Part shown: in pieces, positions 11,311 through 38,470 of the stretch
How the letters are laid out: every line of letters begins with the position of its first letter
Position numbering within the stretch: position 1 is the stretch's first letter
Source: Escherichia coli
GTDB taxonomy: Bacteria; Pseudomonadota; Gammaproteobacteria; Enterobacterales; Enterobacteriaceae
DNA length: 64,000 nucleotides
NCBI RefSeq assembly: GCF_002854065.1
Contig: NZ_CP024147.1
Direction: 5' to 3' (one strand)
Notes under the pieces: model-generated
Seen by the model: the letters and a program-made list of their open reading frames with translations, nothing else
Databases searched by the model: none
What the model was told of the DNA's origin: nothing
Made by a program: the position numbers and the translations under genes

Positions 11311-11528
11311 TCATAAATATGAAAAATAATTGTTGCATCACCCGCCAATGCGTGGCTTAATGCACATCAACGGTTTGACGTACAGACCATTAAAGCAGTG
11401 TAGTAAGGCAAGTCCCTTCAAGAGTTATCGTTGATACCCCTCGTAGTGCACATTCCTTTAACGCTTCAAAATCTGTAAAGCACGCCATATCGCCGAAAGG
11501 CACACTTAATTATTAAAGGTAATACACT
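11311..11528 (+). promoter_or_regulatory. cspA promoter and long 5'UTR. AT-rich UP element, -35 TTGCAT (11333..11338), -10 CTTAAT (11356..11361), and the ~160-nt cold-box thermosensor leader.
   Basis: Hexamers with 17-bp spacing read from the sequence. Matches the well-known cspA promoter/UTR architecture. Confidence 0.7.
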
Positions 11529-11741
11529 ATGTCCGGTAAAATGACTGGTATCGTAAAATGGTTCAACGCTGACAAAGGCTTCGGCTTCATCACTCCTGAC
11601 GATGGCTCTAAAGACGTGTTCGTACACTTCTCTGCTATCCAGAACGATGGTTACAAATCTCTGGACGAAGGTCAGAAAGTGTCCTTCACCATCGAAAGCG
11701 GCGCTAAAGGCCCGGCAGCTGGTAACGTAACCAGCCTGTAA
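11529..11741 (+). CDS. cspA: Major cold-shock protein CspA
   Basis: [70 protein letters not shown] (70 aa). Confidence 0.97.
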
Positions 11742-11761
11742 TCTCTGCTTAAAAGCACAGA

Positions 11762-11797
11762 ATCTAAGATCCCTGCCATTTGGCGGGGATTTTTTTA
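11762..11797 (+). terminator. cspA rho-independent terminator (CCCTGCCATTTGGCGGGG plus T8)
   Basis: Hairpin followed by TTTTTTTATTT. Confidence 0.8.
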
Positions 11798-32190: not shown

Positions 32191-32290
32191 TTGCCTGATG
32201 CGCTACGCTTATCAGGCCTACATGAGTTCTGCAATATATTGAATTTGGAAGAATTTGTAGGCCGGATAAGGCGTTTACGCCGCATCTGGC
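32191..32290. repeat. REP/BIME pair (TTGCCTGATGCGCTACGCTTATCAGGCCTAC ... GTAGGCCGGATAAGGCGTTTACGCCGCATCTGGC)
   Basis: The same REP family recurs at 53821..53940 and 63140..63240. Confidence 0.8.
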
Positions 32291-32337
32291 ATAAACAAAG
32301 CGCACTATTCCGGCGTTTAGAAACGCTGGAAAACGTT

Positions 32338-32817
32338 TCAAACAGGCTGCTGCCGTAGCCGATGCCGCTGCACTTTCTCGACATCCATGCACTGCAACGC
32401 CTTTGTCGGGCAGGCTTCAACACAGGCCGGTCCCGTCGCCCGATGCCAGCACAGATCGCACTTAATCGCCCTCGCCTTTTTGCGCGAAGAAACGACCTCC
32501 ATCGCACCAAACGGGCAAGCCAGCATACAGCTTTTACAGCCAATGCAACGTGTTTGTTCAACGAAAATATGCCCATGTTCGCGGCTTATCGCGTCAACAG
32601 GGCAGACATTCGCGCACGGTGCATCTTCACACTGATGACAGGCTACTGCCGTGGTCCAGCTGTGGTCTTTAATGACACGAATACGGGAAATAAACTCGTC
32701 TGGTGACAACGCAGCGCAATCCTGATTCTCCTGATGCGACACTGCGCAAGCCACTTCACAGGTACGGCAACCGATACATTTCGTCGCATCCGCAATAATA
32801 AACCGGTTCATGATCAC
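32338..32817 (-). CDS. ysaA: 4Fe-4S ferredoxin-type protein YsaA (HycB/HydN-like)
   Basis: Multiple CxxCxxCxxxCP motifs, ~157 aa. Confidence 0.88.
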   Translation of the reverse strand: MIMNRFIIADATKCIGCRTCEVACAVSHQENQDCAALSPDEFISRIRVIKDHSWTTAVACHQCEDAPCANVCPVDAISREHGHIFVEQTRCIGCKSCMLACPFGAMEVVSSRKKARAIKCDLCWHRATGPACVEACPTKALQCMDVEKVQRHRLRQQPV

Positions 32818-32912
32818 TCCTTTGCACTAAAACAGCAGAGTGCCAGAGAGCGCGTCCCTACTGCTTTGATCCAACGAAGGAAATGTTAAAGTTTTGGCAC
32901 TTGTCCAAAGCG

Positions 32913-33054
32913 TTATGTGATCGCGCCCAGGTCATCCCTGACAGTAAATCCCAGTTCATTAGAAATAGCCTGCGCGGTTTCACGCAGTGGTTTCAGGAGA
33001 TTTTTCTCCCCCACCTGTTTCAGACGTGATGTCGAAAGCGAAATCGACACGGCA
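32913..33054 (-). pseudogene. yiaJ: 3'-terminal remnant (~46 codons) of an IclR-family regulator gene (yiaJ-like), truncated by the inserted AraC–GPH–GH127 cassette
   Basis: Minus-strand translation gives ...VSISLSTSRLKQVGEKNLLKPLRETAQAISNELGFTVRDDLGAIT* (stop at 32913..32915). It resembles the C-terminal effector domain end of IclR proteins. In K-12, yiaJ occupies this position. Confidence 0.5.
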
Positions 33055-33855
33055 CTACGAATTGATATGTTCCTTGCTGTAACGCCGCTTCCACGCTGCT
33101 GGCGTTAAACCGGTGTGTTTGCGAAAAATCTGCCGGAAATAGCCAACGTCATTAAACCCGCACAACGCCGCCACTTCCGTGAGCGATCGCGCTTCGCTAA
33201 TTAACAGCTTTTCGGCTTCGCGCACCCGCTGGCGATGGATTGCTTCTGTTAACGTCAGATGAAACACCCGCCGGTAGACGCGCCCAAGATAATCGGCATT
33301 GCAGTACAGCTCGCGGGCCAGAAGCGCCGTAGAAAGCGGGCGATGATATTGCGTGCGGATCAGTTTCTGCGCTTTCCAGGCAAGGGTGGTGCCTGCGCCA
33401 TCGGCCTGTTCATCAAGACGCGCGTCACGGGTGAGCTGCTGCAAAATGAGCAGCACAATAAACTCCAGCGCCGGAGTGCGTTGATGCTTTTCCTGTTCGC
33501 TTAAGAACTGGCGAAACAGGGCCACCAGCGCCTGCGGATCGACAACCTTCGTTTGTTGCGGCACGCTAAGATGAGTAAGCCAGCGAGGGTCGTTGTCCGG
33601 CGCTTTAACCTCAAAATGCAGCCAGTAAAATTTGAGATCGGCGGGAAAATCCTCCACCCCAACATGTTGTCGGTTCGGCCAGAGTAATAAACTCTCTCCC
33701 GCATCGACCAGAAATATCCGTTCTTCTTCCTGAATCGTTAATCGACCTTTTTCGACAAAGATAATTTCCCATGACTCCAGCCGCCTTGCAGGATGCCTCC
33801 CTACGCCACGGGAAATAAATAATCCACCATTTTGCACTTTAATCGGTAACGTCAT
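33055..33855 (-). CDS. AraC/XylS-family transcriptional regulator (N-terminal cupin sugar-binding domain plus C-terminal HTH)
   Basis: C-terminal AraC HTH signature (...LTEVAALCGFNDVGYFRQIFRKHTGLTPAAWKR). Divergent from the downstream transporter gene. Not part of the K-12 backbone. Confidence 0.8.
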   Translation of the reverse strand: MTLPIKVQNGGLFISRGVGRHPARRLESWEIIFVEKGRLTIQEEERIFLVDAGESLLLWPNRQHVGVEDFPADLKFYWLHFEVKAPDNDPRWLTHLSVPQQTKVVDPQALVALFRQFLSEQEKHQRTPALEFIVLLILQQLTRDARLDEQADGAGTTLAWKAQKLIRTQYHRPLSTALLARELYCNADYLGRVYRRVFHLTLTEAIHRQRVREAEKLLISEARSLTEVAALCGFNDVGYFRQIFRKHTGLTPAAWKRRYSKEHINS

Positions 33856-33918
33856 GGATAATTCGAGCATTGATATGTAATTTCCCGCTTATTCATTAAT
33901 GATTAAACACATTACCTT

Positions 33919-33933
33919 TTGATTATTAATCAA
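33919..33933. promoter_or_regulatory. 15-bp perfect palindrome TTGATTATTAATCAA in the divergent AraC-regulator / transporter promoter region. Candidate operator.
   Basis: Read directly from the sequence, in a 225-bp AT-rich intergenic region with additional ATTAAT repeats. Confidence 0.35.
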
Positions 33934-34095
33934 AAACATTAATTTCACCTGATCTATTTCACACTTTTAAATTCAGGTCGGAATCGTCACCTTTTTTTAC
34001 TCTTTTCTCGCCTTGTTGATATTCCCGTTCACGGCAGAATTAATCAGGTCATTTCAATAAAACTAAAAATTGCTCCCTATTCACGAGGAATATCT

Positions 34096-35496
34096 ATGAC
34101 CTCTACACCGATTACTACCGCTGATATCGCTAAAGGTAAAATTGACGATGCGTTATCTGTACGGGAAAAAATAGGCTACGGCCTGGGTGACGCAGGCGGC
34201 ACCGTAATAACTTGCCTGATCATGAATTTTCTCACCTTTTTCTACACCGACGTTTTTGGATTAACTCCGGCGCTGGTTGGCACGCTGTTTATTGCACTGC
34301 GCGTGTTTGATGCCATCTCCGACCCGGTGATGGGCGTCATTGCCGACCGGACGCAAAGTCGCTGGGGGCGCTTTCGTCCGTGGCAGCTATGGATTGCCAT
34401 TCCCATCGGCATTATCGGCATCCTGACGTTCACCGTGCCAGATGCCAGCATGGGAGTAAAAATCGCCTGGGCGTTCGGTACTTACCTGCTCCTTTCAGTC
34501 GGTTATACCGCCATCAACGTACCGTACTGCGCGCTGATCAACACCATGACCACCCGCCACAATGAAGTGATCTCCTGCCAGTCCTGGCGATTCGTTCTCT
34601 GTGGCGTAGCGGGATTTCTGGTTTCGGTAGGCTTACCGTGGATGGTAGATCTCTTCGGTCAGGGTAATGCCGCGCGCGGCTATCAATTGGGCGTCGGCGT
34701 GCTGTGCGCCATTGCCGTGGTGATGTTCCTGTGCTGTTTTTTCTGGGTTCGTGAACGGGTGCCACTCTCCACAATGGGGAAATTTACCCTGCGCGAACAT
34801 CTTGCCGGGCTGCGGAACAACGACCAACTGCTGCTGATGCTGGTCATGTCTTTCCTGCTGATTAACGTCTTTAACATTCGCGGCGGTGGGTATATGTACT
34901 TCATTACCTACGTCTTACAAGGCAGTACGGGCTACACGTCGCTGTTCTTCACCATGGTCACCTTCGCCTCCATTATCGGCTCGGTGATTGTCAGCCCGTT
35001 AACGCGGCGTTTCGATACCGTCAAAATTTACTACTACACCAACCTGCTCCTCGCTGCGCTGGCAGTGTTGATGTGGTTCCTGCCCTCCGGCCCGGCTTAT
35101 CAAACGCTGTGGCTGGCGGTGATCCTCGGTAATGGCGTAATTCTTGGCTTCACATTGCCACTGCACTTCTCATTGATGGCCTTTGCCGATGACTACGGCG
35201 AGTGGAAAACCCGCGTACGTTCTTCCGGCATGAACTTCGCCTTCAATCTGTTTTTCATCAAGCTGGCCTGGGCCTCCAGCGCCGGGATCATCAGCCTGCT
35301 GTTTATTTTTGTCGCCTACCAGCCTGGCGTGGAAAACCAGACCGCCAGTTCGCTTGGCGGGATCGCGGCGATGGAAACATTACTGCCTGCGCTATTCCAC
35401 CTGCTGCTGGCAGGGGCGATCCGCTTTTGCAAACTCAATCATCCTATGATGTCACGCATAGCTACCGACCTGCGTCAGCGTCATGTACAGCCTTAA
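34096..35496 (+). CDS. GPH-family (MelB/XylP/YicJ-like) glycoside-pentoside-hexuronide:cation symporter
   Basis: 466 aa, 12-TM profile, GPH signature (GYGLGDAG...[25 protein letters not shown]). Confidence 0.85.
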
Positions 35497-35506
35497 GGAG
35501 CACAAG

Positions 35507-37477
35507 ATGAACATTTCGGAAGTCGATCTGCATAAACTGACGGTCAGCGATCCGTTCCTCGGTCAGTACCAACAACTGGTCCGCGACGTGGTGATTCCTT
35601 ATCAGTGGGATGCTTTGAACGATCGTATCCCAGAAGCGGAACCCAGCCATGCGATTGAAAACTTTCGCATTGCCGCCGGACTTCAGGAGGGTGAATTTTA
35701 CGGGATGGTGTTTCAGGACAGCGACGTCGCCAAATGGCTGGAAGCAGTAGCCTGGTCGCTGTGCCAGAAGCCGGACGCCGAACTGGAAAAAACCGCCGAC
35801 GAGGTGATTGAACTGGTCGCCTCCGCCCAGTGCGAAGACGGCTATCTCAATACTTACTTTACGGTAAAAGCACCCGAAGAACGCTGGAGCAATCTGGCGG
35901 AGTGTCATGAACTTTACTGCGCAGGTCATCTGATTGAAGCCGGAGTCGCCTTCTTCCAGGCCACGGGAAAACGGCGCTTGCTGGGGGTCGTTTGCCGCCT
36001 GGCCGATCATATCGACAGCGTATTTGGTCCAGATGAAAGTAAGTTACACGGTTATCCTGGTCACCCGGAAATTGAACTGGCACTAATGCGCCTGTATGAA
36101 GTGACTGAAGAGCCGCGCTACCTGGCGCTGACGAACTATTTTGTCGAACAGCGTGGTGCGCAACCGCACTATTACGACCAGGAATATGAAAAGCGCGGGC
36201 AGACATCGCACTGGCACACCTACGGCCCGGCATGGATGGTGAAAGACAAAGCCTACAGCCAGGCACATTTGCCCCTTGCGCAACAGCAAACCGCCATCGG
36301 TCACGCGGTACGTTTTGTCTATCTGATGACCGGCGTCGCGCATCTCGCGCGTTTAAGTCACGATGACAGCAAGCGTCAGGACTGCCTGCGGCTGTGGAAC
36401 AATATGGCCCAGCGTCAGTTATATATTACCGGCGGCATTGGCTCGCAAAGCAGCGGCGAAGCGTTCACTAGCGATTACGATCTGCCGAATGACACGGTAT
36501 ACGCTGAAAGTTGCGCCTCCATCGGCCTGATGATGTTTGCCCGACGAATGCTGGAAATGGAAGGCGACAGTCAATATGCCGATGTGATGGAGCGCGCACT
36601 GTACAACACCGTGCTCGGCGGCATGGCGCTGGATGGCAAACATTTCTTCTATGTGAATCCGCTGGAAGTACATCCAAAATCGCTGAAATTCAACCATATC
36701 TACGATCACGTTAAACCGATCCGCCAGCGTTGGTTTGGCTGCGCTTGTTGTCCGCCAAATATCGCCCGCGTGCTGACCTCGATTGGTCATTATCTCTACA
36801 CGCCGCGTGAAGATGCGTTGTATATCAACATATACGCAGGAAACAGCATGGAAGTGCCGGTAGAAAATGGCACGCTGCGCCTGCGGGTTAGCGGGAACTA
36901 TCCGTGGCAGGAGCAGGTGACGATTGCGGTTGAATCGCCCCAGCCGGTACGTCATACGCTGGCTTTACGTCTGCCGGACTGGTGCACACAGCCGCAGATC
37001 ATATTGAATGGGGAAGAGGTCGAGCAGGATATTCGTAAAGGGTATTTGCACATTACCCGCGAATGGCAGGAGGGCGATACGCTGAATCTGACTTTGCCGA
37101 TGCCGGTACGCCGCGTTTACGGTAACCCGCTGGTGCGTCACGTCGCCGGAAAAGTGGCGATTCAGCGCGGCCCGCTGGTGTATTGCCTGGAACAGGCCGA
37201 CAACGGCGAGTCACTGCATAATCTGTGGCTGCCCACCGATGCGCCATTTACGACATTTGAAGGCAAGGGATTGTTTAGCCATAAGATCTTAATCCAGGCA
37301 CCGGGTTACCGGTATGAACAGAGCAATCCAGAGCAGCAACCGCTGTGGCATTACGACAGCGCGCCAGCCAAACGCCAGACGCAAACTCTGACCTTTATCC
37401 CATGGTTTAGCTGGGCCAACCGGGGTGAAGGCGAAATGCGGATCTGGGTGAATGAGGAAAAGCATTGCCATCCGTAG
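35507..37477 (+). CDS. Glycoside hydrolase family 127 (DUF1680; HypBA1-like beta-L-arabinofuranosidase)
   Basis: 656 aa. Conserved GH127 regions (NTYFTVKAPEERWSNLAECHELYCAGHLIEA; WFGCACCPPNIARVL, a Cys-rich Zn/catalytic motif). SD AAGGAG lies 7 nt upstream. The start is 10 nt after the transporter stop, suggesting an operon. Confidence 0.8.
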   Translation: MNISEVDLHKLTVSDPFLGQYQQLVRDVVIPYQWDALNDRIPEAEPSHAIENFRIAAGLQEGEFYGMVFQDSDVAKWLEAVAWSLCQKPDAELEKTADEVIELVASAQCEDGYLNTYFTVKAPEERWSNLAECHELYCAGHLIEAGVAFFQATGKRRLLGVVCRLADHIDSVFGPDESKLHGYPGHPEIELALMRLYEVTEEPRYLALTNYFVEQRGAQPHYYDQEYEKRGQTSHWHTYGPAWMVKDKAYSQAHLPLAQQQTAIGHAVRFVYLMTGVAHLARLSHDDSKRQDCLRLWNNMAQRQLYITGGIGSQSSGEAFTSDYDLPNDTVYAESCASIGLMMFARRMLEMEGDSQYADVMERALYNTVLGGMALDGKHFFYVNPLEVHPKSLKFNHIYDHVKPIRQRWFGCACCPPNIARVLTSIGHYLYTPREDALYINIYAGNSMEVPVENGTLRLRVSGNYPWQEQVTIAVESPQPVRHTLALRLPDWCTQPQIILNGEEVEQDIRKGYLHITREWQEGDTLNLTLPMPVRRVYGNPLVRHVAGKVAIQRGPLVYCLEQADNGESLHNLWLPTDAPFTTFEGKGLFSHKILIQAPGYRYEQSNPEQQPLWHYDSAPAKRQTQTLTFIPWFSWANRGEGEMRIWVNEEKHCHP

Positions 37478-37487
37478 GTTGGATAAG

Positions 37488-37590
37488 GCACTCGCGCCGC
37501 ATCCAACGTAAGGAGCACATTGCCTGATGCGACGCTTAACACGTCTTATCAGGCATACAAGTCGGTGCGAGAGCGTAGGCCAGCCGCACC
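37488..37590. repeat. REP/BIME elements between GH127 and yiaT
   Basis: GGATAAGGCACTCGCGCCGCATCC and GCCTGATGCGACGCTTAACACGTCTTATCAGGC palindromic units. Confidence 0.7.
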
Positions 37591-37606
37591 GACATCCACC
37601 GGTGAA

Positions 37607-38347
37607 TTAAAAACGCCAGCTCACGCCGGTGACAAAGGTAAAACTCTCATTACGATCAATCATCGGGCTGTCGGTAATCTCTTCCGGCAGCTCGCTGTAT
37701 CCGGCGCTCGCCATCAATACGACGTGCTCTCCTATCGGGTATTTTGCCGTCAGGCTGACATAGGGCACCCAGGCATCCTGCGCGGAATAACTTGCCAGAC
37801 CGCTACGACGGGACTCACTCTCTGAAATGCCATAGTAATAGTCACTGAAATTCTCGTCATAATAGAGAACGCCCAGCGCAGGTGTCAGCGACAGACGACC
37901 TATCTGCATTTTGTGGAATACCGATAGCTCCCCCACCCAGCCGTTGCTGTTATCCAGAACGTCCGCAGCTGCAGAGGCTTTCACGGTTCCCCAACGCTCG
38001 TGGTGATACCAGGCAACCCCCGCCATAGCCGTACTATCACGCTTATCAAGCTGTTGCATGGCATAATCGTCATTATCGGCAGGGTCAAATTCCAGCGGCA
38101 TCCAGGATGCGGTCAGGCTAAGTTCATTTTTTTCACTTTGCGACAGAATAAAACCTAACGTGGTCTGACGAACATAAAAAGAATCACCTTCATAACTAAT
38201 CAGGGGAATTGCCTTTGTATTTTCATTATAACCGCGATAAGGCGATTCATTATAAGCCGCACCAGCACCAATGGATAATTCAGAAGCAGTTGCGCTTGCC
38301 ATAAAAGGCAACGCAAATAACGCCACAATATTGCGGTTAATTAACAT
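37607..38347 (-). CDS. yiaT: Outer-membrane protein YiaT (MipA/OmpV family)
   Basis: 246 aa, signal peptide, C-terminal ...SWRF. Confidence 0.88.
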   Translation of the reverse strand: MLINRNIVALFALPFMASATASELSIGAGAAYNESPYRGYNENTKAIPLISYEGDSFYVRQTTLGFILSQSEKNELSLTASWMPLEFDPADNDDYAMQQLDKRDSTAMAGVAWYHHERWGTVKASAAADVLDNSNGWVGELSVFHKMQIGRLSLTPALGVLYYDENFSDYYYGISESESRRSGLASYSAQDAWVPYVSLTAKYPIGEHVVLMASAGYSELPEEITDSPMIDRNESFTFVTGVSWRF

Positions 38348-38470
38348 GTCCGGTATTCCATTTTAAAATAAGATAAAAAAGAGTCGGCATAGTAATGCTT
38401 ACAATTTCTCCGGTGCAAGATTCATATTTATATAGTAATATATAAAATTATATATAATTGGGCTGTTGCG

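Follow-up and report, generated by a model that had tools for sequence, protein, structure and literature searches.

The module and its products

The stretch of Escherichia coli DNA considered here, termed the window throughout, comprises 64,000 nucleotides of contig NZ_CP024147.1 (RefSeq assembly GCF_002854065.1) and carries, between a remnant of yiaJ and the gene yiaT, a cassette of three genes: a regulator gene of the AraC/XylS family and, divergent from it, the genes for a GPH:cation symporter and for a glycoside hydrolase of family 127 (GH127). An earlier reading made from the letters of this DNA (the original prediction) had described these three genes with their strands and coordinates, and open reading frame (ORF) calls recovered all of them as described (Table 1). 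The products are labelled 'AraC family transcriptional regulator', 'MFS transporter' and 'glycoside hydrolase family 127 protein' in RefSeq, an annotation that is already correct; each part is a member of a well-known family and the cassette is no new kind of system. The locus is an intact, routinely annotated and uncharacterised accessory sugar operon, which is strain-variable in E. coli.

After the stop codon of the transporter gene (TAA, 35494-35496) come GGAGCACAAG and the hydrolase ATG at 35507, which leaves a gap of 10 nt. As anticipated, a good Shine-Dalgarno (SD) sequence was seen at this junction; the AAGGAG overlaps the transporter stop codon and 6 nt separate it from the hydrolase ATG. 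Because of this overlap and the 10-nt gap, the transporter and the hydrolase are likely to be encoded on one transcript with coupled translation, in agreement with the co-transcription originally proposed. The distance from the end of the transporter gene to the start of the hydrolase gene was 10-37 nt in all related loci. An alternative in-frame ATG for the hydrolase is present at 35483, 8 codons upstream, and the RefSeq start corresponds to the 656-residue form.

The boundaries of the cassette were also as predicted. On the left lies a remnant of an IclR-family gene, which is a partial IclR pseudogene in the RefSeq annotation of genomes identical or nearly so to the window and corresponds in alignment to the last part of an intact yiaJ, and on the right lie two repetitive extragenic palindromic (REP) elements. 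REP pattern searches hit the window 1 and 4 times, where shuffled sequence predicts 0 matches, and one REP copy of the right flank matches a REP upstream of aldB. An Rfam scan detected no RNA element inside the cassette. The GC content of the cassette, at ∼54-55%, is close to that of its flanks.

Table 1. Features of the cassette, its control region and its immediate flanks (positions in the window).
Feature	Position	Strand	Basis or remark
ysaA	32338-32817	same strand as regulator gene	next feature inward is the yiaJ stump
yiaJ 3' remnant (IclR-family repressor gene), 141 nt	~32913-33053	minus	left stump of the deletion
Deletion junction, 11 nt	33043-33053		overlap of BLAST segments
AraC/XylS-family regulator, 271 aa	33055-33870	minus	ORF and Pfam; divergent from transporter gene
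Divergent control region, 225 bp	33871-34095		alignment of intergenic regions, 80 loci
Conserved box TGATTATTAA	33920-33929		80-locus alignment
CRP-like site GATC-N4-TCACAnTTT	33951-33968		80-locus alignment
Conserved block, 39 bp, proposed activator site	33974-34012		abuts TTGTTG
TTGTTG, invariant, proposed -35	34013-34018		
Non-conserved spacer, 16 nt			between TTGTTG and CAGAAT
CAGAAT, conserved, proposed -10	34035-34040		
SD GAGGAA of transporter gene	34085-34090		
GPH:cation symporter, 466 aa, YagG/YicJ-like branch	34096-35496	plus	Pfam MFS_2 and TIGR00792
Intercistronic junction, GPH/GH127	35495-35506	plus	sequence
GH127 glycoside hydrolase, 656 aa	35507-37477	plus	three GH127 Pfam domains
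Two REP elements	37481-37504 and 37522-37558	plus	between convergent GH127 and yiaT genes

The hydrolase matched all three GH127 domains of Pfam (PF07944, PF20736 and PF20737) far above their cut-offs, with 374.3 bits for the catalytic (alpha/alpha)6 domain (cut-off 24.9), 84.2 for the middle domain (24.2) and 89 for the C-terminal beta domain (23.7). The best match in the PDB was the beta-L-arabinofuranosidase Ara127N (4QJY; 782 bits, E 5e-234), with 54% identity over 644 aligned columns spanning residues 11-650 of the hydrolase, and a second named beta-L-arabinofuranosidase, HypBA1 (3WKW), followed with 507 bits (E 1e-150). Lower matches were obtained with two GH127 proteins of Bacteroides type, 6EX6 (386 bits) and the aceric-acid hydrolase BT1003 (5MQO, 319 bits). 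In a protein homologue search the best 120 matches were all close enterobacterial orthologues of at least 83% identity.

HypBA1 is a retaining cysteine glycosidase, in which Cys417 serves as nucleophile and Glu322 as acid/base, and in which a (Cys)3-Glu site binds a zinc ion (PMC8106489). Glu322, Glu338, Cys340, Cys417 and Cys418 of HypBA1 align to E318, E334, C336, C414 and C415 of the hydrolase, and these catalytic and zinc residues were invariant in 81 of 81 sequences, namely the window protein and 80 orthologues from other species. The Cys-rich GH127 motif WFGCACCPPN noted in the original prediction occupies residues 409-418, and the assignment to GH127 with intact catalytic residues is upheld by the alignment, in which every HypBA1 equivalent is present. 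The hydrolase is therefore predicted to be a retaining cysteine beta-L-arabinofuranosidase with C414 as nucleophile and E318 as acid/base, and with E334, C336, C414 and C415 as the predicted zinc ligands. Further positions of HypBA1, which we take to line its -1 subsite (His142, His194, His270 and Tyr386), are kept as H134, H186, H266 and Y382. A hydropathy scan found no hydrophobic segment or signal peptide at the N-terminus, and the enzyme would accordingly be cytoplasmic.

The transporter was matched by Pfam MFS_2 over residues 27-448 (245.6 bits, E 9.8e-73) and by TIGR00792 'gph' (TC 2.A.2) with 331.5 bits against a cut-off of 231.35, which places it in the GPH family, as proposed. Scores against the subfamily models were 353.8 for YagG (cut-off 610), 322.9 for the YicJ model PRK11462 (836), 205.9 for MelB (456) and 190.5 for the glucuronide transporter UidB (528). 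All four scores lie under their cut-offs, which indicates a separate paralogue, and presumably one that moves a different sugar from YagG, YicJ, MelB or UidB. Structures of MelB matched the transporter over its whole length (E 2e-37). The acidic pair of MelB helix II, Asp55 and Asp59, corresponds to D72 and D76, while Asn58 is replaced by Ser75, and Asp19, Asp124 and Trp128 of MelB are replaced by Thr, Asn and Cys; we take the acidic pair to belong to the cation site of MelB and the replaced residues to include its sugar contacts. The transporter is probably cation-coupled, with H+ as the probable coupling ion because Ser stands at the position of Asn58, and we read its cargo as a sugar other than melibiose. 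A hydropathy scan gave many overlapping hydrophobic windows along the protein, which did not resolve into a count of transmembrane segments.

Conservation and deletion history of the locus

The conservation of the cassette was assessed by scanning one genome per species and retaining the best 80 loci. These loci span more than 20 enterobacterial genera, among them Citrobacter, Klebsiella, Raoultella, Enterobacter, Kluyvera, Lelliottia, Leclercia and Phytobacter, together with Kosakonia, Scandinavium, Buttiauxella, Cedecea, Pantoea and Mixta. The order of regulator (minus), GPH (plus) and GH127 (plus) was found in 79 of the 80 loci, the exception being a truncated contig. Full-length orthologues were present in all 80 related species and the hydrolase ORF was intact in 81/81 sequences, with 80-96% amino acid identity to the window protein (80-88% without the Escherichia sp. 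locus). Pairwise ratios of non-synonymous to synonymous substitution (dN/dS) fell in the range 0.02-0.13 for each of the three genes, in comparisons inside Escherichia as well as across genera, with 0.04-0.13 for the regulator. Together with the full-length orthologues, these ratios indicate real genes under strong purifying selection, neither chance ORFs nor decaying sequences.

In many genera the cassette occupies the same site as in E. coli, either as sgbE–cassette–yiaT–yiaU or as avtA–ysaA–cassette–yiaT–yiaU, and many Citrobacter, Klebsiella, Enterobacter, Kluyvera and Lelliottia genomes carry the yia–sgb cluster and the cassette in the tandem order described below for E. coli. In Pantoea, Mixta and some others the neighbouring genes are unrelated; the three genes are kept together amid these unrelated neighbours, which marks them as a self-contained unit. 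No recurrent extra glycosidase or ara genes were found among the flanking genes in other genera. The module is ancestral in Enterobacteriaceae, with yiaT on one side and the yia–sgb cluster, or else ysaA, on the other. In Pantoea stewartii ATCC 8199 (L044:5590-6990) the GPH orthologue is divided into two ORFs of 203 and 257 codons beside a GH127 gene and a regulator gene that look intact, and the transporter gene of this plant pathogen is probably pseudogenised.

The arrangement of the locus within E. coli was surveyed in 5,426 complete genomes with junction-spanning probes, and four states account for 5,261 of them. State A, with both modules in tandem in the order ysaA-yiaJ-yiaKLMNO-lyxK-sgbHUE-[AraC-GPH-GH127]-yiaT (for example L002), was found in 1,893/5,426 genomes, and state B, the window arrangement ysaA–yiaJ'–cassette, in 426/5,426, O157:H7 among them. 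The K-12-like state C, in which yiaJ–sgbE is followed by short stumps and then yiaT, was the most frequent (2,461/5,426). In state D (481/5,426, including O127:H6 E2348/69, L004) sgbE is fused to aldB, and the cassette has been lost with yiaT, yiaU, yiaV and yiaW. The whole cassette was found in 2,311 genomes.

Compared with L002, the window corresponds to state A with 8,987 bp missing, from inside yiaJ to just beyond sgbE. BLAST aligned window 32300-33053 to L002 4271-5024 and window 33043-38400 to L002 14001-19358, and no foreign DNA was found at the joint in this comparison. The two segments overlap in an imperfect microhomology of 11 nt between yiaJ and the intergenic region of sgbE and the regulator gene, ATCGaCaCGGC on ATCGcCcCGGC, in which the CGGC at the joint matches exactly. 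The yiaJ stump aligns at 99% with the corresponding end of the intact gene in L002 and L003, and for L001 and L006 RefSeq lists it as an IclR pseudogene that is incomplete. The window strain thus lost the segment from yiaJ' to sgbE in a single microhomology-associated deletion that spared the cassette.

In K-12 it was the cassette that was deleted, independently, and yiaJ–sgbE that stayed. The MG1655 pseudogene ysaC (b4648) is a remnant of the regulator gene, consisting of the last 102-116 nt, and ysaD (b4649) is a remnant of the GH127 gene, holding 190 nt of the 3' part; relative to the window, K-12 lacks 4,021 bp (33159-37179) and a further 210 bp (37370-37579). The second of these deletions has a 6-nt CCAGCC microhomology at its joint. 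The GH127 stump of K-12 (L003:14117-14306, window 37180-37369) is 89.5% identical to the window, compared with 97-100% for intact E. coli alleles and 99% for the flanks, which reflects either long neutral drift or a divergent source allele.

Cassette and yiaJ–sgbE are therefore ancestral neighbours that have been reciprocally lost. The original prediction had the cassette replacing the yiaJ–sgbE cluster of K-12, and this does not hold: the two modules adjoin in 1,893 genomes and are not mutually exclusive, K-12 retains stumps of the cassette beside sgbE, and the window derives from the tandem state by a clean deletion. Nor do the REP elements speak for a replacement event, as had been suggested, since the REPs of the right flank also occur in genomes with both modules and are in this respect uninformative. 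The locus is a clean case of reciprocal loss and a warning that 'A here, B in K-12' need not mean replacement. The independent deletion alleles, state D included, indicate that the ysaA–aldB interval is a deletion hotspot.

Two observations relate to the junction itself. In Escherichia sp. E1V33 (L007:4313-4549, window 32818-33054), which is a different species or clade, an identical arrangement of yiaJ stump and deletion junction was seen with no more than 92% identity, so that the deletion allele is either old, as a trans-species polymorphism, or has moved by recombination. In genomes with both modules (L002:13989-14010) sgbE and the regulator gene converge on a common GC-rich hairpin, GCCGGGGC-TTCATC-GCCCCGGC, which is probably a bidirectional terminator. 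The left arm of this hairpin has gone from the window through the deletion (33043-33053), and regulator transcripts may consequently read through the yiaJ stump towards ysaA.

The regulator and the divergent control region

The minus-strand ORF contains the AraC_binding domain at residues 26-132 (39.2 bits, E 7.2e-10), HTH_18 at residues 184-263 (69.9 bits, E 2.3e-19) and HTH_AraC (E 2.2e-10), and the divergent AraC-type regulator of the original prediction was confirmed on this basis. An N-terminal cupin-type ligand-binding domain is followed by a C-terminal double helix-turn-helix. Against NF007860, the model for AraC proper, the score was 61.1 bits with a cut-off of 208, and the protein is no AraC orthologue. 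It is presumed to be a sugar-responsive activator of the operon.

Footprints in the control region were obtained from a multiple alignment of the intergenic regions of the 80 loci, and functions were proposed for the boxes from their conservation. The region has a GC content of ∼39-43% and consists of sharply kept boxes amid divergent sequence (Table 1). The hexamers TTGTTG and CAGAAT may represent a weak -35/-10 pair, with a transcription start near 34047; on this numbering the 39-bp block would lie at about -73 to -35 as a putative activator binding site, and the CRP-like site would have its centre near -91.5. The right half of the CRP-like site is a perfect match to the CRP consensus half-site TCACATTT. 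For the regulator gene, the CRP-like site would lie ∼42 bp upstream of the start implied by a minus-strand AATAAT in the TGATTATTAA box. A scan of 33871-34095 with the sigma-70 consensus found no strong promoter, which fits a promoter that depends on an activator.

The layout resembles that of araC–araBAD, in which an AraC-family gene is likewise divergent and the AraC I1-I2 sites lie where the conserved block abuts the proposed -35 here, at about -73 to -35. The CRP site of araBAD, which we take to be at -93.5, is close to the position of the CRP-like site. The two systems differ in that the regulator here is not an AraC orthologue, and in that the boxes here are proposed from their conservation.

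The regulator-proximal half of the control region also holds a 23-nt direct repeat (33892-33914 and 33919-33941; TTCATTAATGATTAAACACATTA and TTGATTATTAATCAAAAACATTA) with a spacing of 27, and the repeat region (33892-33941) contains a perfect palindrome, TTTTGATTA-T-TAATCAAAA. The repeat was considered as a pair of AraC half-sites and set aside, as across genera only the TGATTATTAA core of the second copy is kept. This conserved core may be the -10 of the regulator gene or an operator, either being a candidate.

Proposed pathway and alternative explanations

Taken together, the data make it probable, in our judgement, that the cassette is a beta-L-arabinofuranoside uptake-and-cleavage operon under AraC-type control, ancestral in the family and left beside the yiaJ stump by the window deletion. 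The uptake-plus-cleavage function of the original prediction agrees with these data and has good support from homology. Gene identities, catalytic residues, conservation, purifying selection, promoter footprints and the history of the locus are firmly established here, and substrate, coupling ion, activator role and box functions are inferred. In the proposed pathway a small beta-L-arabinofuranoside, released by other microbes from plant hydroxyproline-rich glycoproteins, arabinans or arabinogalactan proteins, would reach the periplasm, and the GPH symporter would import it, probably with H+. The leading candidate is Araf-beta1,2-Ara (beta-Ara2) or a similar short oligosaccharide capped with beta-L-Araf, a choice guided by the Bifidobacterium longum precedent. 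In the cytoplasm the GH127 enzyme would cleave the glycoside to L-arabinose, C414 attacking C1 with E318 as acid/base and Zn2+ held by E334, C336, C414 and C415, and the L-arabinose would enter the araBAD pathway, the route of L-arabinose catabolism. The regulator would sense the sugar through its cupin domain and activate from the site abutting the -35, with CRP upstream in an araBAD-like layout, such that the AraC-type protein and CRP would switch the operon on in the presence of substrate and the absence of glucose.

Three kinds of known system are pertinent to this proposal. Ara127N (AraN) of Geobacillus stearothermophilus T6 (4QJY/4QK0) is the closest solved relative of the hydrolase, alike from end to end with the same domain order, the common CACCPPN motif and no extra N-terminal extension. 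Its gene is said to have been described by Lansky and colleagues in 2014 as the last of an 11-gene unit in an arabinan-utilisation region of ∼38 kb, whereas the enzyme encoded in the window has no partners beyond a GPH symporter and a dedicated regulator of the AraC type. In E. coli, pairs of a GPH transporter and a cytoplasmic glycosidase are familiar from yicJ-yicI, yagG-yagH, melB-melA, uidB-uidA and yihO-yihQ; the two-gene design is the same and the YagG subfamily and PRK11462 models are the best for the transporter, but the hydrolase belongs to GH127 rather than to GH31, GH43, GH4 or GH2 and the model scores remain below their cut-offs. The GPH class has, to our knowledge, not yet been linked to beta-L-arabinofuranosides.

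A parallel in pathway logic is offered by B. longum JCM 1217, with HypBA1 (GH127), HypBA2 (GH121), HypAA (GH43) and an ABC importer for beta-Ara2. There, an extracellular GH121 enzyme frees beta-1,2-arabinobiose from the hydroxyproline-linked arabinooligosaccharides of extensin (PMC7263609), and HypBA1 is intracellular and acts on the imported beta-Ara2 (PMC7263609, PMC8106489). Import followed by cytoplasmic GH127 cleavage would be common to both systems, and all catalytic and zinc residues are shared by the two hydrolases. The window locus differs in having no extracellular GH121 or GH43, a GPH symporter in place of an ABC transporter with binding protein, and an AraC-type regulator. With only three genes between yiaJ' and yiaT, a cluster of the B. 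longum type, that is a GH121 gene and a beta-Ara2 ABC importer beside the GH127 gene, is absent.

Several points weigh against the proposed pathway. A literature search found no functional study of the enterobacterial operon, its enzyme, its transporter or its regulator, which agrees with the original statement that no pathway of this kind has been characterised in E. coli, and substrate and regulation accordingly rest on homology. The transported sugar is not readable from MelB, because the MelB sugar positions are changed, and the promoter hexamers were assigned by conservation in a region where the consensus scan returned no sigma-70 site. No GH121-type extracellular enzyme is encoded at the locus, and E. 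coli would therefore have to rely on other organisms to free the sugars. Loss of the cassette from ∼57% of complete E. coli genomes makes it dispensable in many niches. Finally, GH127 includes other specificities, such as that of the aceric acid hydrolase BT1003, and the sole NCBIfam match of the hydrolase was NF049879, aceric acid hydrolase.

The last point bears on the alternative that the architecture is as described and the substrate is another glycoside; examples would be a glycoside of a branched sugar of the aceric-acid type, a 3,6-anhydro-galactoside or a furanoside from plant secondary metabolism. GH127 is polyspecific, the aglycone or +1 specificity is unreadable from the hydrolase sequence, and the term GH127 occurs 32 times in a carrageenan paper (PMC5698469), reportedly with reference to 3,6-anhydro-D-galactosidase activity. 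However, the NF049879 match reached 454.7 bits against a cut-off of 950, with its best stretch at residues 252-649, and so does not identify an aceric acid hydrolase equivalog; the two beta-L-arabinofuranosidases outrank BT1003 among the PDB matches (782 and 507 versus 319 bits), and H134, H186, H266 and Y382 keep the HypBA1 positions presumed to form the -1 subsite. A different substrate of this sort is hence considered unlikely, if somewhat less so than the two alternatives that concern the fate and origin of the cassette. That E. coli keeps it as a cryptic or decaying relic, silent or with no useful substrate in the gut and heading for loss, would be in keeping with at least two independent losses (the K-12-type and E2348/69-type deletions), with the ∼57% of complete genomes that are without it, with the failure of the consensus scan to find a strong promoter and with the split transporter gene of Pantoea stewartii. 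The three ORFs in the window are nevertheless intact, the hydrolase is full-length in every sequence compared, dN/dS within Escherichia is 0.02-0.08, the promoter boxes are kept across genera, and one study found a GH127 gene to co-segregate with invasiveness of adherent-invasive E. coli (AIEC; PMC11879602). Decay is on this evidence improbable.

The model implied by the original prediction, in which the cassette was horizontally acquired and replaced yiaJ–sgbE at ysaA–yiaT in a single event, is suggested by its position where K-12 has yiaJ–sgbE and by the yiaJ stump at its left boundary. Against this, the modules are in tandem in the 1,893 state A genomes, in K-12 the ysaC and ysaD stumps stand on the right-hand side of sgbE, the window differs from the state with both modules by a single clean loss of 8,987 bp whose joint contains no foreign DNA, and the cassette is syntenic in many genera with a hydrolase identity of 80-88% (80-96% with Escherichia sp.). 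Horizontal acquisition was rejected given this synteny, the flank-like GC content and the lack of mobile-element genes, and we give the model almost no weight.

If the cassette is indeed an uptake-and-cleavage operon for beta-L-arabinofuranosides, then E. coli gains a defined, strain-variable trait of plant-glycan scavenging, present in ∼43% of complete genomes including O157:H7 and absent from K-12, E2348/69-type B2 strains and many others; a function would be assigned to the K-12 pseudogenes ysaC and ysaD, and a GPH symporter would be added to the uptake routes for beta-L-arabinofuranosides, of which that of B. longum is an ABC transporter. A wider and more tentative suggestion, on which we are close to evenly divided, is that ∼43% of E. 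coli and most genera of Enterobacteriaceae scavenge di- or short oligosaccharides of beta-L-Araf through a proton-coupled GPH transporter, as a strain-variable cross-feeding niche in the gut. The sugars may come from beta-Ara2 freed from dietary extensins by Bifidobacterium GH121, or from beta-Araf-capped arabinan fragments. In a pangenome study of isolates from inflammatory bowel disease (IBD), an accessory GH127 gene co-segregated with epithelial-cell invasiveness and was interpreted by analogy with HypBA1 (PMC11879602; commentary PMC11954838). This gene is probably the hydrolase gene of the window module, and the pathway, if correct, would offer a testable nutritional explanation for the association with AIEC invasiveness and could help to explain the co-segregation of GH127 among IBD isolates.

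Two RNA matches were recorded elsewhere in the window. In the avtA–ysaA intergenic region (32214-32256, minus strand) the small RNA ES036 (CssrF) of Rfam was matched with 39.7 bits against a gathering score of 37.6; a REP at 32264-32287 adjoins the match, which may be REP-derived rather than a distinct small RNA. A full-length cspA thermoregulator 5' untranslated region (Rfam RF01766, 501 bits) lies at 11369-11796 on the plus strand.

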